NCBI RefSeq assembly: GCF_002075285.3 | Contig: NZ_CP021983.2 | Coordinates: 2,790,001 to 2,822,000 of the forward strand | DNA length: 32,000 bases | Direction of reading: 5' to 3' | Source: Halomicronema hongdechloris C2206 | GTDB taxonomy: Bacteria; Cyanobacteriota; Cyanobacteriia; Phormidesmidales; Phormidesmidaceae | Shown here: positions 3,888-30,371 of the stretch, piece after piece | How the letters are laid out: every line of letters begins with the position of its first letter | How positions within the stretch are numbered: position 1 is the first letter of the stretch | Notes under the pieces: generated by a model | What the model saw: the letters and a program-made list of their open reading frames with translations, nothing else | Database searches by the model: none | What the model was told of the DNA's origin: nothing | Position numbers and translations under genes: made by a program

Positions 3888-3889
3888 TA

Positions 3890-4966: not shown

Positions 4967-5046
4967 GATTGATTACGGGAAAAATTTAAAGGCTCTTTGG
5001 ACTAAACTATGCTGACTGCATTACTAAAAACCTCGAATCCCTTATG

Positions 5047-9577: not shown

Positions 9578-11653
9578 TCAAGATGACGTCGAGGCGGGCA
9601 GGGCGGCTCGCTCTGGGATAGGCCGCTGCTCATCGGCATCGGCATCGGCGAGTAGCCAGCCCCGCAGCCAGCGCGCCACAGTCCGCTGGGCCAGATCGCC
9701 GACGATGCGCTGCCCCATGGAGTGGGTCTCTGGCCGCATCAATAGGTCTGGGAGTCGACTGGCTAGCAAGGTGGGGTCAAACCCCTCCGTATCCCGCAGG
9801 ATGGCCAGAATGTTGACGATGTGCTGCCAGTCCTCCTCGGCTGGGGGGGCGCCGTTTTTGCCGGCGGTCTCAGCCTGGGCAGGAGCCTCGCCCCAGCCGA
9901 AGCGTTCATAGAGGGTGTGGCTGAGCAGGTGAGGCAGGTGCTGACCCAGCTGATCCAGGGTGCGCACGGCTTCAGCGGCGATGCGATCGCGAATGAAGCG
10001 GCCCCGCTCGGAGTATAAAAACTCGATGGTTTGATCTAAGACCTTGGCCAGGTCATAGTCCTCGCTGTTGCGGGCATTGCGCAGCAGGTTTTCCAAGCGG
10101 TTCCAGCGAAACCGGTCATCCTTGAACAGCAGTTCCCGCAGCGAGGTGCGCAACTCTGGGGCCGGATCCGTCAACAGTCGCTTCGAGACATAGGGATAGG
10201 CCTTGCTGAGCACCTTGAAGTTGGGATCTACATTGATGGCGATACCCTCCAGGGTGACCAACGAACGGATGATCAGGGCATAGTAGGCCGGCACCCGGAA
10301 GGGATATTCATACATCAGGGCCGAGAACTCATCGGTGATGCTCTTGAAATTCAACTCGGCCACGCTGGCCCCCAGGGCGTTGTTGAAGACCTCGGCCAGG
10401 GCCGGAATGATTGGCCGTAGGTCGGTATCGGGGGTGAGGAATTCCAGCTTGATGTAGTCCTGGGCCAACCCTTCGAAGTCGCGGTTGACCATGTGCACCA
10501 CCGCCTCGATCAGGCCGTAGCGCTGATAGGGCTTCACCTGGCTCATCATGCCGAAGTCGAGGTAGGCCAGTTTGCCATCGGCGGTGGCCAGCAGGTTGCC
10601 GGGGTGGGGGTCGGCATGGAAGAAGCCATGTTCCAGCAGCTGCCGCAGGGAGCATTGCACGCCGATCTCGATCAGATGGGTGGCGTCGATGCCCCGAGTT
10701 TGCAGTTCGCTCAACTTCGTCAGCTTAGTGCCGTCGATCCACTCCATGGTCAGCACCCGACGGCGAGTGTACTGACGATAGATGCGGGGCACATAGATGT
10801 CATTCAGGTGGCCGTAAAGCTTGGCGAAGCGCTCGGCATTCTGAGCCTCGTGGGCATAGTCCATCTCCTCGAAGATGCGGGCCCCAAACTCATCCATGAT
10901 CCCCACCAGATCGCTGCGAATCTGGGGAATGTAGTCGGTGCCCAGCTGGGCCAGCAGCCGTAGGATATAAACGTCCAGGGTAATGCGCTGGGCCAGGTCG
11001 GGCCGTTGCACCTTGACGGCTACCACCTCACCGCTGTGCAGACGGCCTTTATATACCTGCCCCAGGGAGGCGGCGGCCACAGGGTCTGGGGTCAGGTCGG
11101 CGTAAACTTCGTCTGGCGGAGCCCCCAACTCGGTCTCGATGAAGTGGTAGGCCAACTCATTGGCAAAGGGGGGCAACTGGTCCTGCAAGCTGGAGAGTTC
11201 GTCTAGAAAGATGGGCGGCACCAGGTCGGGCCGAGTGGAGAGGGCCTGGCCCACCTTGATATAGGCCGGTCCCAGATCCGTCAATAATTCCCGCAGCTGC
11301 ACGGCTCGCTGCCGCTGCCGTTGCTCGCTTTTGCCCTGGCGGCGATCCCACCAAATCGTCAGATAAAAGGTGGCGAAGGGCCACAGAATACTGAGAAATC
11401 GCCAGACGATCTGCCAGGGGCGACGGCGATAGTAAGCTGCGATCGCATCGGGGTCGTAGACCCGCAATTGTTCAAAAATGCTCTTGCCAGCGCTCCCCGA
11501 TGATGCTGGGAACGGCGCTAGGGCGCCGCTATCGTCAACCACTGGCTCACTGGCCACCGTAACCGTCGCACTTGGTGAATCTGACCCGGAAAAATGGGGC
11601 GATGCCATAGCCGTCCTCGAAGACCCGTCCAGGGGAGTGCTTGTCAACGTCAT
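9578..11653 (-). CDS. ABC1/UbiB (AarF) family atypical kinase
   Basis: Motifs AAASLGQVYKG, VAVKVQRP, FFHADPHPGNL and YLDFGMM. The N-terminal extension and the start codon are uncertain. Confidence 0.85.
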   Translation of the reverse strand: MTLTSTPLDGSSRTAMASPHFSGSDSPSATVTVASEPVVDDSGALAPFPASSGSAGKSIFEQLRVYDPDAIAAYYRRRPWQIVWRFLSILWPFATFYLTIWWDRRQGKSEQRQRQRAVQLRELLTDLGPAYIKVGQALSTRPDLVPPIFLDELSSLQDQLPPFANELAYHFIETELGAPPDEVYADLTPDPVAAASLGQVYKGRLHSGEVVAVKVQRPDLAQRITLDVYILRLLAQLGTDYIPQIRSDLVGIMDEFGARIFEEMDYAHEAQNAERFAKLYGHLNDIYVPRIYRQYTRRRVLTMEWIDGTKLTKLSELQTRGIDATHLIEIGVQCSLRQLLEHGFFHADPHPGNLLATADGKLAYLDFGMMSQVKPYQRYGLIEAVVHMVNRDFEGLAQDYIKLEFLTPDTDLRPIIPALAEVFNNALGASVAELNFKSITDEFSALMYEYPFRVPAYYALIIRSLVTLEGIAINVDPNFKVLSKAYPYVSKRLLTDPAPELRTSLRELLFKDDRFRWNRLENLLRNARNSEDYDLAKVLDQTIEFLYSERGRFIRDRIAAEAVRTLDQLGQHLPHLLSHTLYERFGWGEAPAQAETAGKNGAPPAEEDWQHIVNILAILRDTEGFDPTLLASRLPDLLMRPETHSMGQRIVGDLAQRTVARWLRGWLLADADADEQRPIPERAALPASTSS

Positions 11654-11796
11654 TAAATCAAAATTTGCTCCTGTAAACTATTGTAACGAATTGCGCCGGA
11701 GCACGACGGGACAAAGCGGTGGAGAGTGGAAAGAAAGCTGTACCCTCAAAAGATAGATGCTTCTCGGATGTCCTATCCATCGCAGCCAGGCTGGGT

Positions 11797-13548
11797 ATGC
11801 TAACCTCCCTTCACATCGAAAATATTGCCCTGATCGATCATCTCCATCTGCAGCTCCAACCTGGGCTGAATGTGCTCACCGGTGAAACCGGTGCCGGTAA
11901 GTCCATTATCCTGGATGCCATTGATGCCCTGTTGGGAGGCAAGGCCAGCCAGCGGTTAATCCGCAGCGGCGCCAAAAAGGCCTTTCTAGAGGCCACCTTT
12001 ACCCTGTCACCCGATCTGAAACGTTGGCTGCAGACCCACCATCCCCAGATTCCCCTGAGTCATGAATTGGTCTGTAGCCGAGACCTCACCGCCGGGCGTG
12101 GCACCGTCCGCAGCCGCTCTCGCCTCAACGGCACCCTGGTCAATAAGGCCCAGATCGAAGCCCTACGCCCCCTGCTAGTCGAGATCACGGCCCAGGGACA
12201 GACCCTACAGGTGGGCTCCCCCGACCGGCAACGGGATTGGCTGGATGGCTTCGGGGGAGAATCTCTGACGCGGCAGCGCCAACAGGTGACCCAACTCTAC
12301 AATGCGGCCCTAGAGGCTCAACGGGCCCTGGAACGCCGTCGCCAGGCCGAGCAACAGCGCTTGGAACAGCTGGACTTGTTTGACTATCAGAGCCGGGAGC
12401 TGACCGCGGCCAACCTAGACGATCCCGACGAACTAGACCAGCTGCAGCAAGAGCGGCAACGGCTGAGCCATAGTGTAGAGCTGCAGCAGCAAAGCTATCA
12501 GGCCTATCAGATCCTCTACGAGAACGAGACTGGCGGCGAGGCCTGCGCCGACCTGCTGGGCAAGGCAGAATCCCTGCTGAGCGACATGTTCAACTTCGAC
12601 CCCACCATTGCCCCCACCCTGGATCTTGTCAGCAATGCCCTGGCCTCTGTGGAAGAGGCTGGTCGCCAGATCAACGCCTACGGTGACACCATCGAGAGCG
12701 ATCCCCAGCGGCTGCAAACGGTGGAAGAGCGCCTCAGCCAGCTGAAGCAATTGATCCGCAAGTACGATCGATCCTTGGCGGAGTTAATCCAATATCGCGA
12801 CGAGCTGCAGGCGACACTAACGGCCATGGAGGGCGACGGCCAGTCCCTAGAGGCCCTGGAGCAGGCCTATCACACCCGCCGCCAGCACCTACTGGCCGCC
12901 TGTGCCGAGTTAACCCACCAGCGCCAGCAAGCGGCCCAGTCACTAGAAGACACCCTGGTCGCCGAACTCAAACCCCTGGCCATGGAACGGGTGCAATTTC
13001 AGGTCGATCTGCGCCCCATGGAGCCCACGGCCACTGGAGCCGATAGGGTTCGCTTTCTGTTCAGTCCCAATCCAGGGGAACCATTGCAACCCCTGGCTGA
13101 GACTGCCTCTGGGGGGGAAATGAGCCGGTTTCTGTTAGCCCTAAAGACCTGCTTCTCGCGGGTAGATCCCGTAGCTACCTTGATTTTCGATGAAATCGAT
13201 GTGGGCGTCTCAGGGCGGGTGGCCCAGGCCATTGCCGAGAAGTTGCATCAGATTGCCCGTCAGCATCAGGTGCTCTGCGTCACCCATCAACCCATCGTGG
13301 CGGCCATGGCCGACATCCATTTCCAGGTGGATAAGCAGGTCGTCGATGCCTCGGCCCAGACTGGTCGAGCCCCGGGCCAGGGCGACCCTGACGATAGCGT
13401 GCGTACCGTGGTGCGAGTAACTCCCCTAGATCGGTCGCAGCAACGGCAAGAACTGGCCCAACTGGCTGGCGGTCAATCCCATCAACAATCCCTCACCTTT
13501 GCCGATGCCCTGCTGGCCCAGGCCGATACTATTCGTCAGAAAAAATAA
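11797..13548 (+). CDS. recN: DNA repair protein RecN
   Basis: MLTSLHIENIALID start, Walker A GETGAGKSI, long coiled-coil middle, signature SGGEMSRFLLAL and Walker B LIFDEIDVGVSG. Confidence 0.9.
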   Translation: MLTSLHIENIALIDHLHLQLQPGLNVLTGETGAGKSIILDAIDALLGGKASQRLIRSGAKKAFLEATFTLSPDLKRWLQTHHPQIPLSHELVCSRDLTAGRGTVRSRSRLNGTLVNKAQIEALRPLLVEITAQGQTLQVGSPDRQRDWLDGFGGESLTRQRQQVTQLYNAALEAQRALERRRQAEQQRLEQLDLFDYQSRELTAANLDDPDELDQLQQERQRLSHSVELQQQSYQAYQILYENETGGEACADLLGKAESLLSDMFNFDPTIAPTLDLVSNALASVEEAGRQINAYGDTIESDPQRLQTVEERLSQLKQLIRKYDRSLAELIQYRDELQATLTAMEGDGQSLEALEQAYHTRRQHLLAACAELTHQRQQAAQSLEDTLVAELKPLAMERVQFQVDLRPMEPTATGADRVRFLFSPNPGEPLQPLAETASGGEMSRFLLALKTCFSRVDPVATLIFDEIDVGVSGRVAQAIAEKLHQIARQHQVLCVTHQPIVAAMADIHFQVDKQVVDASAQTGRAPGQGDPDDSVRTVVRVTPLDRSQQRQELAQLAGGQSHQQSLTFADALLAQADTIRQKK

Positions 13549-13563: not shown

Positions 13564-15177
13564 GTGGAAAACCTAGCGTCCCGTGTGCCCATGTCCTGGT
13601 TGATGGTGGTGGAATCGGCCCTGGAAGATCCAGCGATTGAAGCGAACCTGCGCCAATTCTGCTTGGTACTCCTGGTATCCCTGGGGGTTGCGACCCTATC
13701 GCGGGTCCTGACCCTGCTGCGCAACATTCCCTACACGCTGTTGTTGTTGCTGGTGGGGCTGGGGCTGGCCATTTTAGATGTGCGCCTGGTTAACCTCTCC
13801 CCAGAGCTGATTCTATTCATCTTCCTGCCACCGCTATTGTTTGAAGCCGCCTGGAACCTAAACTGGCAAAGCCTCAGGCGTGATTTTATTCCCATTCTGC
13901 TCTATGCCGTCGTCGGAGTGCTGATCAGCATTGGCGGCCTAGTGCTGGGCCTGGGCACCCTGGCCGGGGCGTCTCTAGCCACGGTGCTGTTGGTGGGGGC
14001 CAGCCTATCGGCTACGGATCCGGTCTCGGTAGTGGCCCTGTTTCGAGAACTGGGGGTGGATAAACGCCTCACCACCCTAATGGAGGGGGAAAGTCTGTTT
14101 AATGACGGGGTGGCCGTGGTCGCCTTCAATCTGCTGGTGGGGTTGGCCCTGGGAGTCGAGCAATTCGACGTCTCGGTGACCGTGGCTCGCTTTTTGGTCT
14201 TCGTCGGCATCGGCACTGGCATCGGGGCCCTGATTGGCTTCGGCATTTCCTTTCTGACTCAGCGCTTCGACTTGCCCCTAGTCGAGCAGTCCCTCACCCT
14301 GGTATCGGCCTATGGTACCTATCTGGTGGCCGAGGAACTGGGCGGCTCTGGGGTAATTGCCGTGGTGACTACCGGCCTGATCTTGGGTAACTTCGGCTCC
14401 CGCATCGGCATGAATCCCCGCACCCGCCTGGCGGTGTCAGAGTTCTGGGAGTTCGTGGCCTTCTTCGTCAATTCCATCGTGTTTCTGTTGATTGGCGATC
14501 AGGTGAAATTCGAGGGGTTAGCCAATAATCTCAATGTCATCGGCATTGCCATCGCCATTATTTTGATCACCCGGCTGGTCAGTATTTTTGGCCTTGGTGC
14601 CCTGAGCAACTGGCTGGTGCAGGCGAATATTCCCCGTCAGGGCCAGACCGTGCTCTGGTGGGGGGGGCTGCGAGGATCGGTGTCAGTGGCCTTGGCCTTG
14701 AGTGTGCCGGTGAGTCTATCCCAACGGGAAGAGATCATCGCCATCGTGTTTGGGGTGATGTTGTTTACCCTGCTGGTGCAGGGGCTGACCACCCAGCCCC
14801 TGTTAGAAAAGCTGGGGCTACTCGGGGATGAACCACTGCGCCAGGAGTATAAGCAGATGGTGGCCCATCGGGTGGCCATGAATCGGGTGATGCAGCGACT
14901 GAGAGATCTGAAGCAGCGCCAGGAAATGGACCCGGAATTATTGGGCTATCAGATGGCCCTGGTGGAAGGTCAACTCAATGAGGTCAACGAAAAGCTGACC
15001 AAGTTAGTCCGTCAGAATCCCGAGATTCAAGCCTTCGCCACCCAGCAGCTGCGGGATGAATTGTTGGCGATCGAATCGGACACCTACGCCGAGTTCATTC
15101 GGGCCGGACAAATTAAGGATGAATTGAAGCCCCTGCTGCAAGAGGTGCTGCCGGATCGATTGGGGGAAGAGCATTAG
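13564..15177 (+). CDS. CPA1-family Na+/H+ (cation:proton) antiporter, NhaP-type, with C-terminal soluble tail
   Basis: Polytopic hydrophobic protein with LSATDPVSVVALFRELG, ESLFNDG and WGGLRGSVSVALAL motifs. The start is GTG 13564 or ATG 13591. Confidence 0.85.
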   Translation: MENLASRVPMSWLMVVESALEDPAIEANLRQFCLVLLVSLGVATLSRVLTLLRNIPYTLLLLLVGLGLAILDVRLVNLSPELILFIFLPPLLFEAAWNLNWQSLRRDFIPILLYAVVGVLISIGGLVLGLGTLAGASLATVLLVGASLSATDPVSVVALFRELGVDKRLTTLMEGESLFNDGVAVVAFNLLVGLALGVEQFDVSVTVARFLVFVGIGTGIGALIGFGISFLTQRFDLPLVEQSLTLVSAYGTYLVAEELGGSGVIAVVTTGLILGNFGSRIGMNPRTRLAVSEFWEFVAFFVNSIVFLLIGDQVKFEGLANNLNVIGIAIAIILITRLVSIFGLGALSNWLVQANIPRQGQTVLWWGGLRGSVSVALALSVPVSLSQREEIIAIVFGVMLFTLLVQGLTTQPLLEKLGLLGDEPLRQEYKQMVAHRVAMNRVMQRLRDLKQRQEMDPELLGYQMALVEGQLNEVNEKLTKLVRQNPEIQAFATQQLRDELLAIESDTYAEFIRAGQIKDELKPLLQEVLPDRLGEEH

Positions 15178-15292: not shown

Positions 15293-15557
15293 CACTAACC
15301 TCCACAGGTATGGGGACAACTGCAGAATGGTGGAACCATAATCTACTGAGATAGGGTAACTATCATCACAGTCTACGTTGTTATGCTCCGGAGGTAGGTT
15401 ATCCATAAGAGCAATCTTTGAAATTTTCTTGAACTATCTTCAACCCGGAAGCTTTTTCGCAGGGTACCTCAACTAGCATGAAGGCAAGCTAGTTCAAACA
15501 TGATTGCCAATGAGATCGCAGCTATGAATAATTTTTACTTTCAACAGGAACTGACGT

Positions 15558-16238
15558 ATGGAAACTAAGATGAGTAGACCTGTCAAACGACAAGCATTAG
15601 AAGTGGATACCTTAGACACTCTTTTTCAGGATTTAACCTCGTTTACTGCCAGAAATTTTCAACGAGAAACCATAGAAGCGATTTTACAGGGAGCCTTAGA
15701 AGGTAGCTTCAGGGGGACGCTCTTGCGGGCACCCACAGGGTCTGGCAAAACGGAAACAGCTGTATCCCCCTATCTGTTCGCAAGGACGTTAAGCATAGAG
15801 TTTCCTAAAAAACTGATTTATGTAGTGCCGTTAAGAACTTTGGCCAATAGTTTACGGGTAAGAACCCAGGGTCTGGTAAATGATTGGGCGAAGAAACACC
15901 TGCTCAATCGCCCACTGGCAGTCACACTTCAAACTGGAGAAAATCCTGAAGATCCAAGATTTGAAGGAGATATTATTTTCTGCACGATTGATCAAATGTT
16001 AAGCAGTTTTCTGAATATTCCATATTCAGTAGGTCGTGGTTCTGCCAACGTGAATGCAGGTGCTATTTTTTCTTCTTACTTAGTTTTTGACGAGTTGCAT
16101 TTGCTTGATCCAGAGCGCTCCTTTGCAACCCTTTTGAAGGTTTTAGAGCAAGTGAATGGGATTTCTCCTTTTTTGTTAATGACTGCGACTCTGACAGATG
16201 AGCTAGCAGGTGAAATTCAGAAGGTAGTTTCCCAATGA
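15558..16238 (+). CDS. Cas3-like DEAH helicase, N-terminal RecA lobe (first part of a split gene)
   Basis: Walker A LLRAPTGSGKTETAV, motif Ia VVPLRTLANSL, motif II VFDELHLLD and motif III LLMTATL. It ends in an ATGA overlap with the next ORF. Confidence 0.8.
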   Translation: METKMSRPVKRQALEVDTLDTLFQDLTSFTARNFQRETIEAILQGALEGSFRGTLLRAPTGSGKTETAVSPYLFARTLSIEFPKKLIYVVPLRTLANSLRVRTQGLVNDWAKKHLLNRPLAVTLQTGENPEDPRFEGDIIFCTIDQMLSSFLNIPYSVGRGSANVNAGAIFSSYLVFDELHLLDPERSFATLLKVLEQVNGISPFLLMTATLTDELAGEIQKVVSQ

Positions 16239-18331
16239 AAGTTATTGAAGTGCAATCATCAGATTTACAGAAAATAGAGGGCGATCGCTGTCGCACTTTT
16301 GCCGCCATTGAGTCTCCATTGACTGCCGATTTAATCCTTCAGGATATTCGTGAGCATAATCGCAGACGAGTTATTGTTCTTTGCAATGTCGTATCTTTAT
16401 CCCAGGGATTATTTCAGGACTTAGTCAATCACAAAGATTCTGATAGGTTAGAGATTACGCTGCTCCATTCCCGCTTTTTACCCGAAGACCGAAAGGAAAA
16501 AGAAGCGGATTTGGAAAGGAGGTTTGGAAAGGAGTGGCAACAGCAGGATGACGGTAAATGTCATGTGTTGATATCAACTCAGGTAATTGAGGTGGGCATC
16601 AATATCACCTGTGAGGTCATGCATACCCATCTATCGCCGATGAGTTCTTTATTGCAACGCGCCGGACGCTGTGCCCGGTTTGGGGGTAGGGGTGAGGTCA
16701 GAGTCTACCGTGAGATTCAGGTCGGAGGCGACACGCCAGCTTTGACGGAGGCTGATATTGCCGAAGATGTTGACGAGCAGGGTAAGCAGACTGGGAGGAA
16801 ACGGCAGTTCTTACCCTATGAAGATGAAATCTGCAATTTAACCTGGAAGGTCTTAAAGCAGCATGACTCTTCAGTTCCAGTGGGTTTCAACATTGAGGAA
16901 GACTGGGTAAACGAAGTTCACGAAGATGAGTCACAATTACAAATCAAGCGCAGACAAAACAATCGCAAGAGCTTTATCACTCGATTTGAGGATGCTATTT
17001 TTCGAGGTGATCGCTCGGCTTCCCGTGACTTAATCCGCTGGGTTGATAACCGCAATATCTTTGTTGCCAGAGAACCCATTCTTATTGATGGTGAAAGCTC
17101 CGAAGTATCTATCGATGAATTAGAGCCGTTCTCTTTGCCGAGAACAACACTCTGTAAAGCCTTGAGAGATTTTCAGGAATTGGGAAATCAAAGTTGGCTA
17201 TTTAAGCGCATTGAATCACCCGCAGACAAGAAAGCTGAAACCTATAGTCAGCCTATCCTCAGCGACATTAACACCACTAAAGACATTATCTTTAGCACCC
17301 GTATTCTGGTGAATCCTGAATATGTGTTCTACAGCAAGGATGTTGGCCTAAGAATTATCGTTGATCCTGAGCCATCAAGGGATGGCGAGCCTTTTGTTTC
17401 GCAGCCCAAGCAGAAAAAGACTGTCATCAATCAGTATCAGTACCACATGGATACCTACGTTGAGCATTTAGCGTTGATGTGGCGATGCTGGAATGAAGCC
17501 TGCTACGAACCTTATGTCAGTGTAAAAGATGAGATTTGTGAGGCAGGAGGTCGTTTTATTCGAGAGAAGGTCTTGCCAGATTACAAAATTACTGAGTCTG
17601 AATTACGACAGATAGAGACTACAGCCCTGTTTGAAATTCTGGTGTTCCTGGCAGTTTTAACCCATGACCTCGGCAAGCTTCAGCAACCTTGGCAGGATTC
17701 CATGCGATTATGGCAAAAAATTGCTTACGAAGAGTTTCGATCTGAAACATTCAAGGCTCACAATCCCAGGTCACTCTTGCTAGCCCACACAGATTATGAC
17801 CCTAATGATAAAGAAACGAAGGACGTAGAGGGAAGAACTCAAAAACAGCGAATGCGAATTCATGAGACGACCGATCCACGTCCCGGACATGCCATTGAGA
17901 GTGCATTTCTGGGTTGGGAATTTCTGGACGCTCAATTCGTGCCTCTACTTGAGGATCACTTTGATCTTGATGAGGAGCAAATCAATAATCTTCTCAGTGT
18001 TGTCATCATGGCTGCGGGGAGACATCATTCAGCCTGGACGAACGGTTGGCAATTATCTGAGGTGGCGACGAAGCAGAGCATCAGGCTCCATCCACAAGCG
18101 AACCAGGCTGTTGCCAAAAGTTGGACAGCTTTATTGAATAAACTCAATCTGCCCTCCTCCATTGCGCTTCCCTCAAAGCCTTTCCACTTCAATCAAACAG
18201 AATATGAGGTCGGCGTTACCCGCCTGGACTGTTTTGAACCCGATGACCTGGAATATCAACAACTCTATGCTCTGGTGGTGAGGGCTCTGAGGCTATGTGA
18301 CAGCCGATCAGTGCAAATCAACCATCCTTGA
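16235..18331 (+). CDS. Cas3-like helicase C-terminal RecA lobe plus C-terminal HD nuclease domain (second part of a split gene)
   Basis: Helicase motifs LHSRFLPEDR, ISTQVIEVGINI and LLQRAGRCARFG. HD-domain motifs are YVEHL, LTHDLGKLQQPWQ, GHAIES, AAGRHHSAW and LRLCDSRS. Confidence 0.8.
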   Translation: MKVIEVQSSDLQKIEGDRCRTFAAIESPLTADLILQDIREHNRRRVIVLCNVVSLSQGLFQDLVNHKDSDRLEITLLHSRFLPEDRKEKEADLERRFGKEWQQQDDGKCHVLISTQVIEVGINITCEVMHTHLSPMSSLLQRAGRCARFGGRGEVRVYREIQVGGDTPALTEADIAEDVDEQGKQTGRKRQFLPYEDEICNLTWKVLKQHDSSVPVGFNIEEDWVNEVHEDESQLQIKRRQNNRKSFITRFEDAIFRGDRSASRDLIRWVDNRNIFVAREPILIDGESSEVSIDELEPFSLPRTTLCKALRDFQELGNQSWLFKRIESPADKKAETYSQPILSDINTTKDIIFSTRILVNPEYVFYSKDVGLRIIVDPEPSRDGEPFVSQPKQKKTVINQYQYHMDTYVEHLALMWRCWNEACYEPYVSVKDEICEAGGRFIREKVLPDYKITESELRQIETTALFEILVFLAVLTHDLGKLQQPWQDSMRLWQKIAYEEFRSETFKAHNPRSLLLAHTDYDPNDKETKDVEGRTQKQRMRIHETTDPRPGHAIESAFLGWEFLDAQFVPLLEDHFDLDEEQINNLLSVVIMAAGRHHSAWTNGWQLSEVATKQSIRLHPQANQAVAKSWTALLNKLNLPSSIALPSKPFHFNQTEYEVGVTRLDCFEPDDLEYQQLYALVVRALRLCDSRSVQINHP

Positions 18332-18370: not shown

Positions 18371-18625
18371 ATGACCTACCTGCAAGAACAACAACTGCTA
18401 GAGCGCATCACCATCAACCCTGACATTTTTGGCGGTAAGCCGATTATTCGAGGGCGCAGGTTAGCAGTAGAACACATTTTAGGAATGCTAGCGGCTGGCG
18501 ATTCTGTGGAAACGCTACTAGAGGGCTATCCCTGGTTAGAACAGGAAGACATCCAAGCTTGTCTGGTCTACGCTCATCGTCTCATTGGCCATGAGCGGGT
18601 TGAGCCTCTCCTGATCGAGGCTTAA
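18371..18625 (+). CDS. DUF433-family antitoxin-like protein
   Basis: ITINPDIFGGKPIIRGRRLAVEHILGMLAAGDS..LLEGYPWLEQEDIQACLVYA is the characteristic DUF433 pattern. A GAGGA SD precedes the ATG, and there is a 2-nt gap to the next gene. Confidence 0.75.
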   Translation: MTYLQEQQLLERITINPDIFGGKPIIRGRRLAVEHILGMLAAGDSVETLLEGYPWLEQEDIQACLVYAHRLIGHERVEPLLIEA

Positions 18626-18627
18626 CC

Positions 18628-18890
18628 ATGAAGCTTTTACTCGATAGCTGTGTTTGGGGAGGTGCCAAATTACCTTTATCTGAAGCGGGTCATGATGTCG
18701 TTTGGGCCGGGGATTGGGATAGCGACCCAGGAGACGCAGAAATTCTGCTAACGGCCTATCAGGAAGGACGGGTGCTGGTGACGATTGACAAAGACTTTGG
18801 TGAGTTGGCCATCGTGCGGGGCACCCCCCACTGCGGCATTATTCGATTGGTCAACTGGAAAGCGCGACAACAGGCCATCGCCTGCTTATA
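18628..18890 (+). pseudogene. DUF5615-family (PIN/Mut7-C-like) toxin gene, last 9 codons displaced by IS630
   Basis: MKLLLDSCVW...AEILLTAYQEGRVLVTIDKDFGEL...GIIRL is the DUF5615 pattern. Removing 18891-20026 joins it in frame to 20027-20054, giving ...ACLYQYLDGSPE* (96 aa in total). Confidence 0.7.
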
Positions 18891-20024
18891 CCAATTACAA
18901 GTGAGTATGCGCCATAGCAAAAGCGCATACTCAGAAATCAGGAAGTGCCATGGGTCGTCCTCTCAAGATTGCGATCGCCGAAAGCGAAGACCGCCTCAAA
19001 AAGTCCCTGCAAGGAGCGCGTACAGCGAGCCAAAAAGAACGGTTGCAAATGCTCTACTGGCTCAAAAGTGGACAGATTGATCGGCGCGATGAATTAGCCC
19101 GTCGCTTAGGGCGAGACAACGCCACCGTGACTCGCTGGCTCGGCAAGTACCGTCAAGGTGGCCTAGCACGATTACTACATGAGGGTAAAGCCCCTGGCAA
19201 AACGCCTCAGGTGCGCGGCCAAGCGTTAGCGGCCTTGAAAGCTCGATTGGCACAACCCCAGGGATTTCGTAGCTATGGAGAGGTGCAGCAGTGGCTGCAG
19301 GCGGAGTGGGGCATCGAGTTGTCCTACACGGCGGTTCATCAACTGGTGCGCTATCGCCTCCGAGCCAAGCTGAAAGTGCCTCGGCCTCGAAGCGTTAAGA
19401 CCGACCCAGCGACCCAAACCGCGTTTAAAAACCCTCCCCTTAGCGATGCGGGAACTGCAGCGATTGCAGGGCGGTCAACGTCGGGTGCGTTACCTATGCC
19501 AAGATGAGACCCGCTTAGGACTCAAAACGATTGCTGGCCGATTACTGACGGCCCCCGGCATCAAACCCATCGGACCTCAGCAGTGGCAACGAGAGGCCTT
19601 TTACCTCTATGGAGCAGTATGGAGCAGTCGAACCTCTCAGGGGCTTCAGCTTCTTCTACGAGTTCTCCCACCTCGACAGCACTTGCTTTCAGGAATTCCT
19701 CAACCAGTTGTCGGCGCAATTAGGGTCAGACCTTGCCCTGTTGAAACTCGACCGTTGCAGTGCCCACTGTGCCAAAGCCCTGGAATGGCCTGAGAACATC
19801 ATCCCGATTTTTCAACCGCCGCACTCGCCCGAACTCAATCCCATTGAGCGGGTTTGGCAAGCCCTGAAGCAGCCTTTGCGCTGGCAGAATTGCCCGTCCC
19901 TGGCGGCATTAAGGGGTGAGGTAACAGAGGTGCTAGAAACCCTGACCCCAGAGCATTTGATGTCCTTGACTTCCTATGATTTCGTCTTGGAAGCCCTATT
20001 GAGCGCAGCCTTATAAGTAATTGG
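18891..20024 (+). mobile_element. IS630-family insertion sequence (1134 bp), decayed
   Basis: Terminal inverted repeats are ccaattac (18891-) and gtaattgg (-20024). It is flanked by TA (18889-90 and 20025-26). A 10-bp perfect hairpin gagtatgcgc/gcgcatactc (18903-18932) lies upstream of the transposase ATG. Confidence 0.8.
18950..20016 (+). pseudogene. IS630-family transposase broken into three frames
   Basis: The HTH part is 18950..19507, the DE-containing part (VRYLCQDETRLGL) is in frame 19446.., and the C-terminal part (QPPHSPELNPIERVW) is 19609..20016. The lesions are a +1 frame change around the A5/C-run at 19427-19439 and a 10-bp tandem duplication atggagcagt at 19609-19618/19619-19628. 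Confidence 0.8.
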
Positions 20025-20104
20025 TATCAGTACCTGGATGGCTCACCTGAATAATTCAGGCTAAGCGACCTGAGAGACGCAATCGTGATGCGATCGCATG
20101 GGGA

Positions 20105-20214: not shown

Positions 20215-21165
20215 TCATCCCTGATGATTTCGATAAGCCCTTTCATATTCCTTCAGTAGCTGGTTAGCCATCCACTGAGGCTCAAGAACCTTGACGTTGC
20301 TACCATATTGCAGCATTCGTTGACGGAACCAAAACCAATGGTCTTCAGAGGTTTCAATATCGACGAATCGTTGATCCGGATCCCGATACAGTTCAACTTC
20401 GTTGGTTCGGCGGGGTTGGTAGTGGGCCAAGGGGCCACTCATACGGTATCGCACCTTTTCTGTCGGGAAGCTGAGTCTGGACCAGAGAGTATCTGAAGCA
20501 GGGTAAACCTTGAGGATACGATCAATGCGAAAGATCAGGTTTTGCTCGATGCTGGGCTGCTTTTCACTGTAACGAGGTGAAAAGTTAGAGATATGGGCAA
20601 ATAGGTATAGCAAGCCGTTGTGAAAGCGGAGTTCTGAGAGATCGCAGTCCCAGTTATTGGTTTTACCGGAACTGCTACGGTATCGAATGACGTAGCGACA
20701 TCCTCGCTGAAAGCGGTCTTGTAATTGTTTAACCGTCTCTTCTAGCTTAGTCTCGCTGTAATCAACAGGAGGACTAAAGGCAACTTTGACTTGGGATGGC
20801 TCAACGGGCTCACTTAGCTTGCCAATATGGAGTAGGTCACTGGCCTGGGCAGAGAAGCCCATATCGCTGAGGACATATGCTGCAAGTGCCAGAGAGTCTC
20901 TTTGCTTGGGAGAAAGCAGGACTGGGAAAGAGGACTCCACCAACTCGTAGGGGCGGTTAGGAGCACTGCTAATTGTAAAGCCACAGTCCCTGAGCTTCCG
21001 GATGGCTCGGCTAACTTTCTGATCAATGTCATTAGAGGACTGGCCATGCCGGTCTAGAAAATCCGTCATTCGGAGGCTCAATGCCTCACGGGTGAGAGGT
21101 TGCTCTGATAGGCACCTCAAGATTTCGAGGGAAAAGGCCAGAGAATGTAGCTTCGCGTCACTCAC
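20215..21165 (-). CDS. HTH-WYL-WCX transcriptional regulator, divergent from the cas operon
   Basis: N-terminal wHTH (LEILRCLSEQPLTREALSLRM), a central WYL-like beta region (RYVIRYRSSSGKTNNWDCDLSELRFHNGLLYLFAH) and a C-terminal extension. WYL regulators are known next to cyanobacterial type I-D loci. Confidence 0.7.
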   Translation of the reverse strand: MSDAKLHSLAFSLEILRCLSEQPLTREALSLRMTDFLDRHGQSSNDIDQKVSRAIRKLRDCGFTISSAPNRPYELVESSFPVLLSPKQRDSLALAAYVLSDMGFSAQASDLLHIGKLSEPVEPSQVKVAFSPPVDYSETKLEETVKQLQDRFQRGCRYVIRYRSSSGKTNNWDCDLSELRFHNGLLYLFAHISNFSPRYSEKQPSIEQNLIFRIDRILKVYPASDTLWSRLSFPTEKVRYRMSGPLAHYQPRRTNEVELYRDPDQRFVDIETSEDHWFWFRQRMLQYGSNVKVLEPQWMANQLLKEYERAYRNHQG

Positions 21166-21480: not shown

Positions 21481-21747
21481 ATGAATTATAGCTTCAACTT
21501 CGGAGACTATAATGCCCCCCTGGCATTAGGCCTCAGAACGGAAGAAGTAGAAAAGATAGTGCCCTTGATTACCCAGCAAGCGATCACCGGCAAGTTGATC
21601 AGAGAGATGGCATCTCAAGGCGCCTTAGAAGTACGTTATCCACTTGGCAGTCTGGATATCAGGCCATCGGTTGAGGAAAAGGTCAATGGTCGTTGGCGAT
21701 GGGATATCTGGATTAAGCCAACGGCAGTTCATTTTCTTGGGAAATAG
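21481..21747 (+). CDS. Small hypothetical protein (88 aa) preceding cas3'
   Basis: It has a strong SD (GGAGGA, 6-nt spacing) and an ATG start. I recognise no family. Confidence 0.5.
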   Translation: MNYSFNFGDYNAPLALGLRTEEVEKIVPLITQQAITGKLIREMASQGALEVRYPLGSLDIRPSVEEKVNGRWRWDIWIKPTAVHFLGK

Positions 21748-21884: not shown

Positions 21885-24005
21885 ATGAAAGTTTTTCTTA
21901 AACCACTATATTCCAAGCTCAATGATGGGCCAGGGAACTGCCCTCTTGGGTGTCAAGAGAAGTGCCGAGTTGCTGAAAATTCAGATCTAAAGCCCCTAAA
22001 AGGCCAGTCTTGTGCCTTATCTTTACACCAGGCCCTTACCTGGGAAGCTGTGGTGCAAGGGGATACTGACGTAATCTTTAATACGGCGGCAACTGGGGAT
22101 GGGAAGTCTCTGGCTGCTACCTTACCTATTCTCTTGAATAAGAACCTCCGGATGGTGGGAATGTATCCCACTATCGAGCTGGTTGATGACCAGGATAGAA
22201 GTCACCGGGACAGTGATACCCGAAAGGGCTGGCATTCAACGTTTGGCTTGAATGCGGAAAAACGCATTGATCGTCTTTATGGTGAAGAACTTAGCCGTCG
22301 GGTACGCGATGGAGAAAGTAATCGGTTTCAAGAACTGCGCAAAGCAATCGAGAATAAGCCTCTGATATTAACTAACCCAGACATTTTTCATTTGATCACG
22401 CATTTTCAGTATAAGAACCCTGCTTATGGAGATTTTGAGCTTCCTTTGTTAATGGCTGAGTTTCCAGATTTCTGGTTATTTGACGAATTTCATATATTTG
22501 GACCACATCAGGAATCAGCTGTCATTAACAGCATGGGCTTTATTCGGCGGTCTCAGCGACGCAAGCGACGGTTCTTATTTACCTCTGCAACTCCCAAAGA
22601 TTCTTTCGTAAAACAACTTAAGGCAGCCGACTTTGGGGAACCCAAAATCATTCCTGGAAACTATTCAGATCATCCACAAGACGGATATCGAAAAATTCTT
22701 GAACCTGTCGAACTTGAATTTATGCAGCTCAAAAAACAGGATGTTTTGGAGTGGTTACAGGGGAAATACCACGAAGTCTATGAATGGCTAGCAAATGAGC
22801 AACGAGGGCGAGGACTAATCATCCTCAACTCAGTAGCTCAAGCTGGCAGAGTTGTTGATTTGCTGAAAGGTTTATTTCAGAACTCGGTAGAGGTCGAGGA
22901 AATTAGTGGGCGGATGGATCGAGCTTCTCGTCAGGTAACTCAGGAAAAATTGAAACATTCCCGGAAACCTGTCCTGGTAATTGGTACATCGGCTGTAGAT
23001 GTTGGTGTAGATTTCAAAATTCATCTGCTGATTTTTGAAAGTAGTGACTCTGCCACTGTTATCCAACGACTCGGCAGGTTGGGGAGACATGAAGGTTTCA
23101 AGCATTATCGGGCGATTGCGCTACTGCCAGAATATGCCTCCTGGATTTTGGGCAAATTGAAAAAACAGCTCACTGAAGGGGCAAGCGTTGACCGTGAAGA
23201 GCTTCGCGATACCATCATTGACGCTTTTGATGCCCCCAAAGAGTTTCAGGAATATCGTCGGGAGTGGGGTGTAGTTCAGGCTCAAGGGATGCTGTCGCAG
23301 TTAAAAGCCAAAGAATATGCCAAGGTGATGCAGCCCGTCTACGAGCGCATCGCCAAAGATTTACAGCCTCTTTATGGCAGCAACATCATAGGCTTTGCCC
23401 AAAGAAAGTTACGAGATTACGATAAATCAGTCGCTGAGGCAATCCAGACCGAGTTGATTCGCTTTCGTGGTGGTACCAGTATCCAGGCTGCTGTATGGGA
23501 TGAGAACCGCTTTTACACCTACGACTTGCTCAGACTGTTGCCTTATACCCTGGTCGAAGTATTGGACGAAGCCGAATTCCTAGAAGCTGCCTATCGCAGA
23601 GGCTATCGGGACTACACCTTCCAATATGCCCAAGTGTTCTTAAAAGTACAGAGGTGGGTTGATGAGCGTATAGATATCCAGCTACGGACTGGACGGGATA
23701 GTAGCGAATTGCAATGCTGTGACTTAATTTTGCTTGGCAAACTCAGACTGTCTCAGCATCCCCAAGCCGATGTTATCAACTGCATGAGTCGCAAGAAGTT
23801 TCTTAGCTTCCTAGTACCAGGCGATTACTGGAAAGTGAGAGATGCCCTTAGAGTTGGTCCACTTTTTGGTTTGTATCCATTGTTAGATAGCTCCGAAAAA
23901 TCCTATGCCTGTGCTTTTGGGCAAGATGCTTTGCTACTTAAAGCGTTGAGAAATGGGCGCTTAAGCAAACTCTGCCGCCAAAATTCAGCCCCAATGTTTT
24001 TTTAG
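21885..24005 (+). CDS. cas3: Type I-D Cas3' helicase (no HD domain)
   Basis: Walker A NTAATGDGKSLAA, motif II LFDEFHIFG, motif III FTSATPK, GTSAVDVGVDF and motif VI QRLGRLGRHEG. It is the first gene of the cas10d-csc2-csc1-cas6 operon. Confidence 0.85.
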   Translation: MKVFLKPLYSKLNDGPGNCPLGCQEKCRVAENSDLKPLKGQSCALSLHQALTWEAVVQGDTDVIFNTAATGDGKSLAATLPILLNKNLRMVGMYPTIELVDDQDRSHRDSDTRKGWHSTFGLNAEKRIDRLYGEELSRRVRDGESNRFQELRKAIENKPLILTNPDIFHLITHFQYKNPAYGDFELPLLMAEFPDFWLFDEFHIFGPHQESAVINSMGFIRRSQRRKRRFLFTSATPKDSFVKQLKAADFGEPKIIPGNYSDHPQDGYRKILEPVELEFMQLKKQDVLEWLQGKYHEVYEWLANEQRGRGLIILNSVAQAGRVVDLLKGLFQNSVEVEEISGRMDRASRQVTQEKLKHSRKPVLVIGTSAVDVGVDFKIHLLIFESSDSATVIQRLGRLGRHEGFKHYRAIALLPEYASWILGKLKKQLTEGASVDREELRDTIIDAFDAPKEFQEYRREWGVVQAQGMLSQLKAKEYAKVMQPVYERIAKDLQPLYGSNIIGFAQRKLRDYDKSVAEAIQTELIRFRGGTSIQAAVWDENRFYTYDLLRLLPYTLVEVLDEAEFLEAAYRRGYRDYTFQYAQVFLKVQRWVDERIDIQLRTGRDSSELQCCDLILLGKLRLSQHPQADVINCMSRKKFLSFLVPGDYWKVRDALRVGPLFGLYPLLDSSEKSYACAFGQDALLLKALRNGRLSKLCRQNSAPMFF

Positions 24006-24018
24006 ATTGCAAATTACA

Positions 24019-27003: not shown

Positions 27004-27005
27004 AC

Positions 27006-27998
27006 ATGACTATCCTCGAATCCCTCAAGCCTGAATTCCACAGCACCTTTCCTCGCCTCGCCTCTGGCAAATACGTTCACTTTTTGATGGTGCGCCATAG
27101 CCAATCCTTCCCAGTCTTTCAAACCGATGGTGTGTTGAATGTAGCTCGTACTAAGGCAGGCTTAGACACTACTGATAAATTCAGCCGCTTGGTTATGTTC
27201 AAACGCAAGCAGACCACACCAGAGCGATTAGCAGGGCGTGAGCTGTTGCGCTCACTGGGCCTAACCACTGCTGACAAAGAAAACAAGGAAAGGTTTTGCG
27301 AGTACAACGGCGAAGGCTCCTGTAAAAAGTGCCCCGACTGTATTATCTATGGCTTTGCCATTGGCGATAGTGGTTCTGAGCGCTCCAAAGTTTACTCAGA
27401 CTCAGCCTTCTCGCTCAGCCCTTACGAACAGTCCCATAAGAGCTTCACCTTCAATGCTCCTTTTGAGGGAGGCACCATGAGCGAAGCAGGGGAAATGCGA
27501 AGTGCCATCAATGAACTCGACCACATCCTACCCGAGGTCAATTTTCCTACAGTAGAAACGCTACGAGACCCCACCTATGAAGGCTTTATCTACGTCCTGG
27601 GTAATCTGCTCCGTACCCGCCGCTATGGGGCACAAGAGTCGCGTACAGGCACCATGACTAATCACCTGATTGGTATTGCCTTTGCGGATGGAGAAATCTT
27701 CAGTAATTTATACTTCACCCAGGCACTCTATGACGCGCTCAAAAATGATCTAGATGCCCCAATTGACGAAGTGCGAAATAAAGCTCAGGAAGTAGCAGCA
27801 ATCCTATTGGCTCAAGAACCCGTGCGGAAGACTCAGCAAATCTTTGGAGAGCAGCTAGATAGCTTGCTGGCAGAAGTTACAGCTATCTACCAAGACGAAG
27901 CCCAGTCACAGACCGTCCTTAGCATCTTGTACCAACAAACCCAAACCTATGCCGAAACCTATGGGGCAAATTCAGGCAAGAAAGGCAGACGCAAGTAA
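27006..27998 (+). CDS. csc2: Csc2 (Cas7d) backbone subunit
   Basis: MTILESLKPEF...KYVHFLMVRHSQSFPVFQTDG and the cysteine cluster GSCKKCPDCIIYGFAIG. An AGGAG SD lies 10 nt upstream, and the position after cas10d fits. Confidence 0.85.
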   Translation: MTILESLKPEFHSTFPRLASGKYVHFLMVRHSQSFPVFQTDGVLNVARTKAGLDTTDKFSRLVMFKRKQTTPERLAGRELLRSLGLTTADKENKERFCEYNGEGSCKKCPDCIIYGFAIGDSGSERSKVYSDSAFSLSPYEQSHKSFTFNAPFEGGTMSEAGEMRSAINELDHILPEVNFPTVETLRDPTYEGFIYVLGNLLRTRRYGAQESRTGTMTNHLIGIAFADGEIFSNLYFTQALYDALKNDLDAPIDEVRNKAQEVAAILLAQEPVRKTQQIFGEQLDSLLAEVTAIYQDEAQSQTVLSILYQQTQTYAETYGANSGKKGRRK

Positions 27999-28018
27999 GT
28001 ATCTGGAGGATAGATAAG

Positions 28019-28777
28019 ATGCTTTACCAATGTGATTTGACCCTCCACGATAACGTCTTTTTTGCCACTCGCGAAATGGGGACGCTGTTTGAAACTGAAA
28101 AGTACTTGCATAACTGGGCTTTAAGCTATGCCCTTTTCGAGGGACAATACCTCAATCGCCCTTACCGATTGCAGGGAGAATACGCTCAAAAACCCAATTA
28201 TTTGGATAGCAGCCACGAACAGAGCCTACATCCGCTGAATGAGACTGGGATATATGTTTTTCCTGCACAACCGCTGCAGTGGGCCTACCAAGTCAACACG
28301 TTTAAGGCTGCTCAGGTGAACTACTACGGCAAATCGAAACAGTTTGGCGATAAAGGCGCTGACCGCAACTACCCCATTAACTTTGGGCGAGCTAAAGAGT
28401 TAGCCGTAGGCAGCACCTACCGGACCTACATCATGGCAAAGGATCAGGCTACCTTACCAGACTGGCTGCAGCAAAAGGATGACGACAAACGCCGGACCTG
28501 GATTCGTCTAGGAAAGTGGGCTGCCAAAATCCATATTCAGGCCAAGTCTATTGCAGGCGAGACAACTGGTTCCGGCACATTTATTTGTCGCCATCCTCTT
28601 AACCCTTTAGATTTGGCAGTATCTATTCGATTAATGGTCTACAACCGCATTGTGATGCCGCCCGTGAGTTTAGTGAGCCAAGCACAATTAGAAGGTGAAT
28701 ACTGGAGGCTTCCCGATGAAACCTGCCTACCCATTGGCTGTTACTACGGGGCAAGATATATGGCCAACGCCTCATAG
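28019..28777 (+). CDS. csc1: Csc1 (Cas5d) subunit
   Basis: The MLYQCDLTLHDNVFFATREMG...YLHNWALSYALF N-terminus is typical of Csc1. There is a GGAGGA SD at 28005-10. Confidence 0.8.
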   Translation: MLYQCDLTLHDNVFFATREMGTLFETEKYLHNWALSYALFEGQYLNRPYRLQGEYAQKPNYLDSSHEQSLHPLNETGIYVFPAQPLQWAYQVNTFKAAQVNYYGKSKQFGDKGADRNYPINFGRAKELAVGSTYRTYIMAKDQATLPDWLQQKDDDKRRTWIRLGKWAAKIHIQAKSIAGETTGSGTFICRHPLNPLDLAVSIRLMVYNRIVMPPVSLVSQAQLEGEYWRLPDETCLPIGCYYGARYMANAS

Positions 28778-29561
28778 ATCTACATCACTCTATTCCATCG
28801 TGGTGCAATTGGCGGCGGCTGGCCAAGGCCGCTTCCCGGCTACCTTAGGGCGGGCAATTCACTCTCAGGTTCTAACCTGGTTGCAGGCAGGAGATTCCTC
28901 TGTAGCCCAGGCTGTCCATAGTACTCAGGTTTCCCCCATGAGCCTTTCAGGACTGGTAGGACGTCGCCGTAAACAAGGCACTCGACCAGATGACGAGTTC
29001 TATTTTCGCATTGGTCTACTGAATGGAGACCTGCTGGAACCCTTATTGGCAGGCTTAGATACCTGGGGGACTCAACCCATTTCTCTGGGCAATTTCCCCT
29101 TTGTTTTGCGAGGGGTAGAAGCGTTACCCGGTGAGCATAAGCAGGTCCAGATTGGCAACTACCATCTATTGAGCAAGACCAGTCCAGTCAGTGATGATCT
29201 TTCCTTGGAGTTGAGATCGCCCACCGCCTTCAAGCAGGGTAAAAAAACAATCCAGCCATTTCCGTTGCCAGAGTTGGTCTTTGGCAGCCTCCTACGCCGT
29301 TGGAATGCCTTTGCCCCGGAGGATCTGCAGTTTTCCCAAATTGAGTGGCAGGGTATGGTGTCTGCCTTTGACCTCAAAACCCGTGTGCTTAGGCTTGAAG
29401 GTGGCCCTCAAATTGGTTCTGTGGGCTGGATAAGGTACCGTTTCCTTGATGCCGAGCAAGCCCGAATTGCTTCTGTGCTAGCTCAGTATGCCTTCTTCGC
29501 TGGAGTTGGCTACAAAACTACGATGGGCATGGGGCAAGTGCAGTCGCTTAATCATGCCTAG
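28716..29561 (+). CDS. cas6: Cas6 (type I-D) crRNA endoribonuclease
   Basis: LYSIVVQL... beta-strand start and the C-terminal glycine-rich loop FFAGVGYKTTMGMGQV. The start is uncertain (GTG 28695 or ATG 28716), and both overlap the csc1 3' end. Confidence 0.75.
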   Translation: MKPAYPLAVTTGQDIWPTPHRSTSLYSIVVQLAAAGQGRFPATLGRAIHSQVLTWLQAGDSSVAQAVHSTQVSPMSLSGLVGRRRKQGTRPDDEFYFRIGLLNGDLLEPLLAGLDTWGTQPISLGNFPFVLRGVEALPGEHKQVQIGNYHLLSKTSPVSDDLSLELRSPTAFKQGKKTIQPFPLPELVFGSLLRRWNAFAPEDLQFSQIEWQGMVSAFDLKTRVLRLEGGPQIGSVGWIRYRFLDAEQARIASVLAQYAFFAGVGYKTTMGMGQVQSLNHA

Positions 29562-29597
29562 CCCTCTCATGTCCTGCCATACCCTTGCGCGATTATC

Positions 29598-29858: not shown

Positions 29859-29934
29859 ATTGAGCGGGCTAACAGCAAAATACTCTTAACCCCAGCCTTC
29901 GACACCCTAAATCCAAGCTATTAGGAGATCTCCC

Positions 29935-30356: not shown

Positions 30357-30371
30357 CAACCTTCACCAGTC

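Follow-up and report, generated by a model that had tools for sequence, protein, structure and literature searches.

A cas3 gene divided between its RecA lobes in Halomicronema hongdechloris, apparent orphan of a two-chain Cas3 variant of cyanobacteria

Two overlapping reading frames make up one Cas3

In a stretch of 32,000 nucleotides (nt) of the chromosome (5,577,845 bp) of the cyanobacterium Halomicronema hongdechloris C2206 (contig NZ_CP021983.2, positions 2,790,001 to 2,822,000; called the window throughout, with coordinates counted from its first letter), two overlapping open reading frames (ORFs) located upstream of a type I-D CRISPR-Cas module together constitute a complete Cas3. These ORFs are very probably the two halves of one naturally split Cas3 helicase-nuclease, which is conserved in a cyanobacterial type I family and has been orphaned in this genome. 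The split is not a recent frameshift; it is an old, recurrent and conserved feature of the family.

ORF1 (15558-16238, + strand; 226 amino acids, aa) is the N-terminal half of cas3 and carries the RecA1 lobe, its translation displaying motifs I (APTGSGKT), Ia (PLRTLANS), II (FDELHLL, with the DELH box) and III (LMTATL, with TAT). It is registered as XM38_026560 / ASC71702.1 under the RefSeq name "DEAD/DEAH box helicase", with the RefSeq start at Met5 (222 aa). ORF2 (16235-18331, + strand; 698 aa; ASC71703.1, named "helicase-related protein" or "Cas3") begins with the RecA2 lobe (16235-16730, + strand; residues ~1-165, motifs IV-VI), in which the Cas3-like_C_2 profile covers residues 44-149 and cas3_core residues 42-165, and where motifs V (LISTQVIEVGINI) and VI (QRAGRCARFG, containing QRAGRCAR) were recognized. 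A middle accessory or linker region follows (16731-17446, + strand; residues ~166-404), conserved within the family with many invariant columns and without a profile match. The C-terminal HD nuclease domain (17447-18331, + strand) holds the motif set LTHDLGK, LAHTDYD, GHAIES, GRHH and LCDSRS; its ligands H411, H477-D478 (in LTHDLGK), H518, H552, H597-H598 and D689 are invariant across 31 aligned homologues. Both ORFs are intact genes in the GenBank and RefSeq annotation.

The two frames meet in an ATGA start/stop overlap (16235-16238, + strand) shared by the start codon of ORF2 (ATG) and the stop codon of ORF1 (TGA), ORF2 being in the -1 frame relative to ORF1; the sequence at the junction is TCCCAATGAAAG. 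The ORF2 frame opens only at 16214, and a purine run (GAAGG) is located 10 nt upstream of its ATG, a feature common to the window and to the loci of two of its nearest relatives, L002 and L084. A sigma-70-like promoter match (TTGCCA-17-AATAAT; 15504-15532, + strand) lies 26 nt upstream of the ORF1 ATG; with 10 of 12 matches it is the best such site between 15100 and 21900, although this is a match to a consensus only and no proof of function. The preliminary description of this DNA, made from the letters alone, had given the same coordinates, overlap and frame opening, and had read the product as a Cas3 with an N-terminal helicase, a C-terminal HD domain and full motif sets; the ORF list, the sequence, the translations and the profile matches all agree with it, and the pattern is no product of chance.

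Profile searches placed neither ORF outside the Cas3 family. In Pfam, ORF1 matched DEAD (4.6e-16) and ORF2 matched Cas3-like_C_2 (8.7e-27), Helicase_C (4.4e-11) and Cas3_HD (1.5e-3), the score with PF18019 being sub-threshold (19.1 bits, cut-off 23.1). The NCBIfam model cas3_HD (TIGR01596) covered residues 459-684 of ORF2 (1.4e-8), also below its cut-off (35.0 against 43.45 bits), while cas3_core gave 70.8 bits with ORF1 and 95.8 bits with ORF2, each under the cut-off of 102.45, and 177.4 bits with a fused orthologue. Nearly all PADLOC matches of the two ORFs were Cas3 models, with Cas3-HD models at 3e-10 and 4e-9.

As for the Cas3 subtype, the preliminary description had associated the pair with type I-G/I-U, an assignment that did not survive. 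The type I-G Cas3 (TIGR02621 / Cas3g) resembles the pair in having the helicase first and the HD domain at the C-terminus, and of the NCBIfam models TIGR02621 scores highest with each ORF, leaving the HD part unmatched; the scores were 73.1 bits for ORF1, 106.8 for ORF2 and 181.3 for the fused homologue P0004, against a cut-off of 400. The partner set of type I-G consists of Csb1, Csb2, Cas8u2 and a Cas4-Cas1 fusion, whereas the cognate loci of this family carry Cas8a- and Cas5a-profile proteins and separate cas6, cas4 and cas1 genes. Because the scores fall below the cut-off and the partner genes differ, the pair is not a I-G Cas3. Membership in the type I-D Cas3' family (TIGR03158) was likewise rejected, with 17.8 bits for ORF1 and 13.1 for ORF2 against a cut-off of 69.1, and with an HD domain present.

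An AlphaFold2 model was made of the fused homologue P0004 (the cas3 product of locus L003) as a single chain (predicted local distance difference test, pLDDT, 79.7; predicted template modelling score, pTM, 0.82). With this model as query, Foldseek gave Cas3 structures as the best matches, 4qqx (the Thermobifida fusca, T. fusca, I-E Cas3; E 9e-16), 8wtk and 9g44; an I-F2 Cas3 was also among the matches, and the highest sequence identity (25-26%) was that with the Pyrococcus furiosus (P. furiosus) I-A Cas3' (7tr8). By alignment, the split maps to P0004 residues 206/207, in a short loop between helix 194-203, which comes after motif III, and strand 208-211; this loop is the inter-lobe linker. The accessory part is modelled as helices 400-469 plus a beta-rich domain.

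The split is shared with most cyanobacterial relatives

A scan of a genome collection with peptides of the window protein alone gave no match, and an alignment-based scan found the relatives; 165 loci were taken, both halves of cas3 were mapped by tblastn and the junctions were inspected. Among the proteins matched by ORF2, many of 675-735 aa have no DEAD domain and many of 885-935 aa have one, and more than 100 stand-alone RecA1 proteins of 200-225 aa have been called independently in public annotations. Among the non-redundant cyanobacterial relatives (n = 101) the gene is split in 80 and fused in 21; all 40 non-redundant distant relatives, which come from non-cyanobacterial metagenomes and display 25-36% identity, are fused. 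The one-piece orthologues (cyanobacterial L003, L004, L005, L007 and L011; metagenomic L119-L165) have the same domain order and the same partners, namely a Cas8a-profile large subunit, a DevR Cas7 and a Cas5a-profile Cas5, the nearest of them being 57-58% identical to the window protein; they are single polypeptides, whereas in the window the cut runs exactly through the inter-lobe loop.

The break falls at the same aligned residue throughout: in nearly every split ORF2 it is residue 1 that aligns with Met1 of the window ORF2. The DNA at the junction varies widely, with overlaps of 20, 14, 4 (ATGA) or 1 nt, spacers of 2-22 nt and gaps of 51-757 nt, all three relative frames being represented; overlaps of 1, 14 and 20 nt and spacers of 2 nt are common, yet gaps of 100-757 nt occur in about a dozen loci. 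The longest of these is a 757-nt insert between the cas3 halves of two Allocoleopsis-like loci (L009, 7776-8536; L024, 1550-2310). Each of the four relatives closest to the window protein has the split gene: L084 (68% identity to the window ORF2) with a 1-nt overlap, L002 (63%) and L085 (61%) with an ATGA junction as in the window, and L086 (52%) with a gap of 209 nt.

This variety bears on the idea that the split is only apparent, a programmed -1 ribosomal frameshift within 16214-16235 yielding a full-length Cas3. The geometry would suit it, since ORF2 is in the -1 frame, overlaps ORF1 and has its frame open for 22 nt before the ATG. However, no X_XXY_YYZ slippery heptamer in the frame of ORF1 occurs within GGTGAAATTCAGAAGGTAGTTTCCCAATGA, among the related split loci every relative frame occurs, as do in-frame stops and gaps as long as 757 nt, across which no frameshift could reach, and the aligned position of each split ORF2 is occupied by a start codon of its own, ATG or GTG. 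Of the explanations considered we find this the least credible.

Selection and phylogeny of the split

A further alternative, raised in the preliminary description, is that a one-piece cas3 has only just been inactivated, through an indel of a single nucleotide near 16214-16238, and that the two ORFs are its decaying remains. The fused orthologues L003 and L004 (57-58% identity) lend it some colour, and by the letter of the refuting condition in the preliminary description the outcome is mixed: they are single ORFs, and what sets their junction apart from that of the split form is in essence a frame shift and an Ile to Met change (LMTATLTDELVKEIQGVVKD-IKILKV in L003; LMTATLTDELAGEIQKVVSQ(stop) and then MKVIEV in the window), and the Cascade partners have been lost here. 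A frameshift near the junction is therefore a fair account of how the two forms differ; what fails is its recency, as nearer orthologues share the split, which makes the event ancient and its product retained. Relatives at 52-68% identity, with synonymous sites that have reached saturation, have the same split, both frames are open over 226 and 698 codons, and 80 non-redundant cyanobacterial loci are split. We consider a recent pseudogene highly improbable, and the description of the gene as a very recent 1-nt deletion is refuted.

Between the window pair and its nearest relatives, synonymous divergence (dS) is saturated (1.4 to >2.9, or undefined) and non-synonymous divergence (dN) is 0.11-0.28, with values of 0.11-0.15 for ORF1 and 0.21-0.26 for ORF2; dN/dS is 0.05-0.15 where computable. 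The window retains 85 of 86 conserved columns in ORF1 and all 120 in ORF2 (205 of 206 overall), a conserved column being one that is invariant or has a single deviant in an alignment of 81 non-redundant cyanobacterial sequences. Judged by these substitution patterns, the split pair is under purifying selection. The functional two-chain Cas3 that the preliminary description had proposed as one of its readings is thus strongly favoured, by the split relatives and by the saturated dS.

A neighbor-joining tree (distance-based, 100 bootstraps) was rooted on the fused distant relatives. Here the cyanobacterial lineages that branch off at the base have the fused gene. The window falls together with L084, L002 and L085 in a clade (bootstrap 95) whose members are all split and whose sister is the fused pair L003/L004 (bootstrap 100). 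All 57 sequences of another, separate clade, from Nostocales and Oscillatoriales, are split as well (bootstrap 86), and L086 and L088 form further split lineages among fused ones. The topology implies that the gene was divided two to four times independently at the same loop, or else that it was divided once and re-fused many times. Since the split and fused states interconvert and both persist, we argue that they are functionally near-equivalent. That separate chains for the two RecA lobes are the normal, selected state in most cyanobacterial members, and that this state arose more than once at the same loop, is a proposal we put forward tentatively, as possible rather than probable.

The family heads a type I operon with a Cas8a-like module

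The genes downstream of cas3 were compared in the 87 informative loci, those with at least 4 kb downstream of cas3. In 78 of them the split pair or fused cas3 heads a complete type I operon with a Cas8a-like/cas7/cas5 module, the order being cas3N, cas3C-HD, a small ORF in some loci, the Cas8a-profile large subunit, cas7 (DevR family), Cas5a-profile cas5, cas6, cas4, cas1 and cas2. The large subunit (~600 aa; 13240-15057 in L003, for example) has no Pfam or NCBIfam match and was recognized only by the PADLOC Cas8a model PDLC01417 (4.9e-31, and 3e-51 in a distant locus), and the cognate Cas5 matched the Cas5a model PDLC01390 at 2.3e-67 and 7.4e-57. The adaptation genes are of the I-D kind in cyanobacteria (cas1_CYANO, 419 bits; Cas1d, Cas4d, Cas6d) and are Cas4b/Cas1b in the distant bacteria. 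Two other identities were ruled out: the large subunit is not a Cas10d lacking its HD domain, as no similarity between the two is detectable, and the family is not the Synechocystis 6714 type I-B with a solved Cascade structure, as the large subunit and Cas7 match no PDB chain.

The small ORF (74-112 aa) preceding the large-subunit gene in some loci has no Pfam match. Toxin-antitoxin (TA) pairs also occur between cas3 and the Cas8a-like gene, MNT/HEPN in L002 (11674-12320) and HicAB in L086 (3080-3535), and a DUF433/DUF5615 pair follows cas3 in the window; the junction between cas3 and the effector genes has the appearance of a hotspot for such small mobile modules. On the other side of the operon, many Nostocales loci have a type III module (with large RAMP proteins and Csx19) whose end lies directly upstream of the split cas3, types I and III being contiguous (L001, 1-6938; L035, 7056-9353; L047, 6449-8671; L052, 7079-9373; L077, 6972-9122).

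The operon also bears on whether the pair could be a stand-alone, non-CRISPR helicase-nuclease defence gene that merely resembles Cas3, another reading offered by the preliminary description. In its favour, the window holds no Cascade genes of the pair's own, seven further loci lack them within 10 kb, and ORF1 has weak PADLOC matches to BrxHI, SngC, PbeA and DpdJ. Yet all the strong PADLOC, NCBIfam and Pfam matches are Cas3 models, a full cas operon lies directly downstream in the 78 loci just described, and the orphans are scattered over the tree without forming a clade, one of them (L028) being a pseudogene; no monophyletic orphan group with conserved non-cas neighbours was seen. We therefore regard this reading as very improbable. 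Because 78 of the 87 loci carry the full operon, the orphan status is a peculiarity of the genome of H. hongdechloris and not of the family.

The orphan locus of H. hongdechloris

Downstream of ORF2 lies a DUF433 protein gene (18371-18625, + strand; PF04255, 2.7e-24), the putative antitoxin of the TA pair, followed by that of a DUF5615 protein (18628-19080, + strand), a PIN-like putative toxin matching positions 1-89 of the 110 of profile PF18480. The 3' part of the latter gene is truncated and replaced by an IS630-like insertion sequence (IS; 18885-20030, + strand) with imperfect 28-nt terminal inverted repeats at 18885-18912 and 20003-20030 and a broken transposase that occupies three overlapping ORFs (18950-19507, 19446-19793 and 19609-20016); the GC content of the element, 55%, is host-like, unlike that of the nearby cas genes. 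Beyond the element, a WYL/WCX regulator gene (20215-21165, - strand; PADLOC WYL, 8e-17) is divergent from the I-D operon.

The type I-D module (21885-31933, + strand) starts 3.55 kb after the ORF2 stop, is complete as far as the window reaches and sits where cas8-cas7-cas5 normally lie. It comprises cas3' (21885-24005), cas10d (24007-27003), csc2 (27006-27998), csc1 (28019-28777), cas6 (28695-29561), cas4 (30372-30953) and cas1d (30956-31933). Its Cas3' scored 195.8 bits on TIGR03158 and its Cas10d 688 bits on TIGR03174, with an HD motif of its own (LTLHD); the pair is thus additional to the I-D helicase and HD domain, as the preliminary description had held. No CRISPR array was found within the window, and the I-D array presumably lies beyond 32000. 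Between cas6 and cas4 (29561-30372) there are ~800 bp without a + strand ORF of at least 110 aa, and a minus-strand ORF (30363-30779) overlaps cas4.

The GC content is 45% for the cas3 pair and 46.5% for the I-D genes, against 58-60% for the genes immediately upstream and 54.6% for the H. hongdechloris genome as given in PMC6416890. By this contrast with the upstream genes and the genome, the DNA from ~15.2 kb to the window end forms one low-GC island. The DNA flanking the pair could not be aligned with that of relatives.

Just upstream of the I-D cas3' is an ORF of 88 aa (21481-21747, + strand) without a Pfam match, which is homologous to the small ORF of L084 (E 1.5e-11) and has a conserved RWRWDI motif. 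Its homologues are located 100-160 nt upstream of the Cas8a-like gene in 14 cognate loci (L003, L007, L025, L041, L046, L050, L061, L062, L065, L069, L078, L084, L086 and L088), and it could be a small regulator or accessory subunit. This homology points to an in situ exchange downstream of the small gene, in which the I-D effector genes took the place of cas8-cas7-cas5. The window pair is an intact orphan, probably left by the replacement of an effector module within a shared low-GC island.

Conceivably, the orphan pair works with the neighbouring I-D module, for instance by adding a processive helicase-HD shredder to the I-D Cascade in a functional hybrid. The locus L076 (Nostocales ELA583) repeats the order of the window (a split cas3, a gene of a mobile element, a minus-strand WYL gene, then cas3', cas10d, csc2, csc1 and cas6), with a YhgA-like transposase gene instead of the IS, a WYL gene 47% identical to that of the window in the same position, and a cas3 from the other split clade, the one with 57 members. 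At both loci the orphan copy is intact, the window has its cas3 pair and its I-D genes within one island, and the two types of system have closely related cas4 and cas1 genes in the same order (Cas1 69-78% identical). Against such a partnership, the arrangement occurs in only 2 of the 87 informative loci, mobile elements lie between the genes in both of them, I-D already has its own Cas3' plus the HD motif on Cas10d, and the Cas8a-like protein and Cas10d have no detectable similarity; recruitment of Cas3 is normally specific to the cognate large subunit. We consider it unlikely, though less so than the other alternatives.

The orphan status of the pair is supported by the searches for its partners: the cognate cas8, cas7 and cas5 were not found in the window by tblastn, even at E = 10, nor was any remnant, in agreement with the preliminary description. 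No H. hongdechloris protein was found among the best 120 of 263 matches (at least 55% identity) of the L084 large subunit, in a database that includes the proteins of this genome; with no such match among the large-subunit relatives listed, a cognate Cascade elsewhere in the genome is unlikely. Several points weigh against our interpretation of the pair as a conserved split Cas3 orphaned in this genome. With its cognate Cascade missing from the window, the pair may lack activity here, and the large-subunit argument covers those best 120 matches. Orphans do decay, as L028 (Calothrix sp. PCC 7103; 10001-12043), an orphan without Cascade genes, has gained an extra stop in ORF2 (169 aa + 493 aa). 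The window branch is ~1.8 times as long as that of L084 in non-synonymous change (ORF2 0.137 vs 0.072; ORF1 0.072 vs 0.041), possibly reflecting some relaxation of constraint after the loss of the partners, or a difference in lineage rate only. Moreover, as the tree is distance-based, one ancient split with several re-fusions may still be compatible with it.

Elsewhere in the window, a second low-GC island (35-39% GC) spans 2000-5000, where an IS630-type transposase is present in two ORFs (2613-3197, helix-turn-helix; 3194-3730, DDE_3) together with an AAA_15/AAA_21 ATPase gene (3890-4966, - strand), OLD/AbiEii-like, which may be a defence gene. A 117-nt tandem repeat in two copies (84-88% identical) occupies 1473-1706, with a 42-nt repeat nearby, inside an ORF of 205 aa (1158-1775, - strand) that has no Pfam match. 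Upstream of cas3, a 609-aa SMC_N/AAA_23 ATPase with RecF/RecN-like head domains is encoded at 11719-13548 (+ strand), directly upstream of a Na+/H+ exchanger gene (13564-15177); no link between this ATPase and the cas genes was seen.

Proposed function and significance of a Cas3 on two chains

If the pair is a naturally split Cas3, its two ORFs would be carried on one transcript and the translation of ORF2 would be coupled to the termination of ORF1 at the ATGA. Chain A would supply the RecA1 lobe for ATP binding and hydrolysis (motifs I-III), and chain B the RecA2 lobe (motifs IV-VI), the accessory region and the C-terminal HD nuclease, with the break in the surface loop linking both lobes. 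We propose from the sequences that the chains assemble non-covalently, the ATPase cleft being formed between them, and that the heterodimer would work as any Cas3 does: recruited to the Cascade R-loop, it would nick the DNA with its HD domain and degrade it during translocation. Both chains may be produced and may associate in H. hongdechloris, where the orphan may be inert, serve the I-D system or act alone.

Known divided enzymes are cut elsewhere. The type I-A Cas3'/Cas3'' (P. furiosus, 7tr8) also distributes the Cas3 function over two chains, and the cognate large subunit and Cas5 of our family match the PADLOC CAS-I-A models; however, the I-A cut separates the whole helicase from the HD domain, while here it runs between the RecA lobes and the HD domain stays on lobe 2. 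The cognate loci display the Cas8a and Cas5a profiles of type I-A but not its separate Cas3'/Cas3'' genes, the HD domain being fused to the RecA2 half, and the adaptation module of the split-cas3 family in cyanobacteria is of I-D type. In the I-D system next door, helicase and HD domain are likewise on different chains, although there the HD domain is borne by the large subunit and not by Cas3, which differs from the HD domain on ORF2. A naturally split motor enzyme is known in the two-gene reverse gyrase of Nanoarchaeum equitans, whose chains must reassemble and whose cut runs between the helicase-like and topoisomerase parts; that is a cut between whole domains, whereas here it separates two lobes that jointly form one ATPase site.

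In the literature library that was searched, no description of a Cas3 split between the RecA lobes was found, "split Cas3" there denoting the helicase/HD division of types I-A and I-D. The window gene is the local, orphaned representative of a two-chain form of Cas3 that is widespread yet apparently undescribed, within a type I family of cyanobacteria whose annotation is poor. The large subunit is called "hypothetical protein" wherever its source gives a name, among the best 120 of 263 matches, and the RecA1 half bears the generic name "DEAD/DEAH box helicase", so that automated CRISPR typing will miscall these loci.

The most abundant CRISPR type has Cas3 as its DNA-shredding motor, and the enzyme is under development for making large genomic deletions. 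A natural split site kept in ~80 non-redundant cyanobacterial loci, probably invented repeatedly, would mean that the motor tolerates delivery as two chains and may even benefit from it, and could be taken over as it stands in the design of Cas3 tools that are split or inducible. A mechanistic question arises as well, namely what holds the heterodimer together and whether its assembly is regulated.

If our interpretation is correct, the ATPase site of a helicase can assemble from two chains in vivo, and the split may serve as a control point, for example through stoichiometry or through assembly-dependent licensing of a dangerous nuclease. The intact orphans beside I-D modules, in the window and in L076, might then be trans-acting shredders for a non-cognate Cascade. 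For H. hongdechloris itself, the window would capture class 1 systems in the act of modular evolution, with a Cas8a-like effector module replaced by a I-D module within one CRISPR island.

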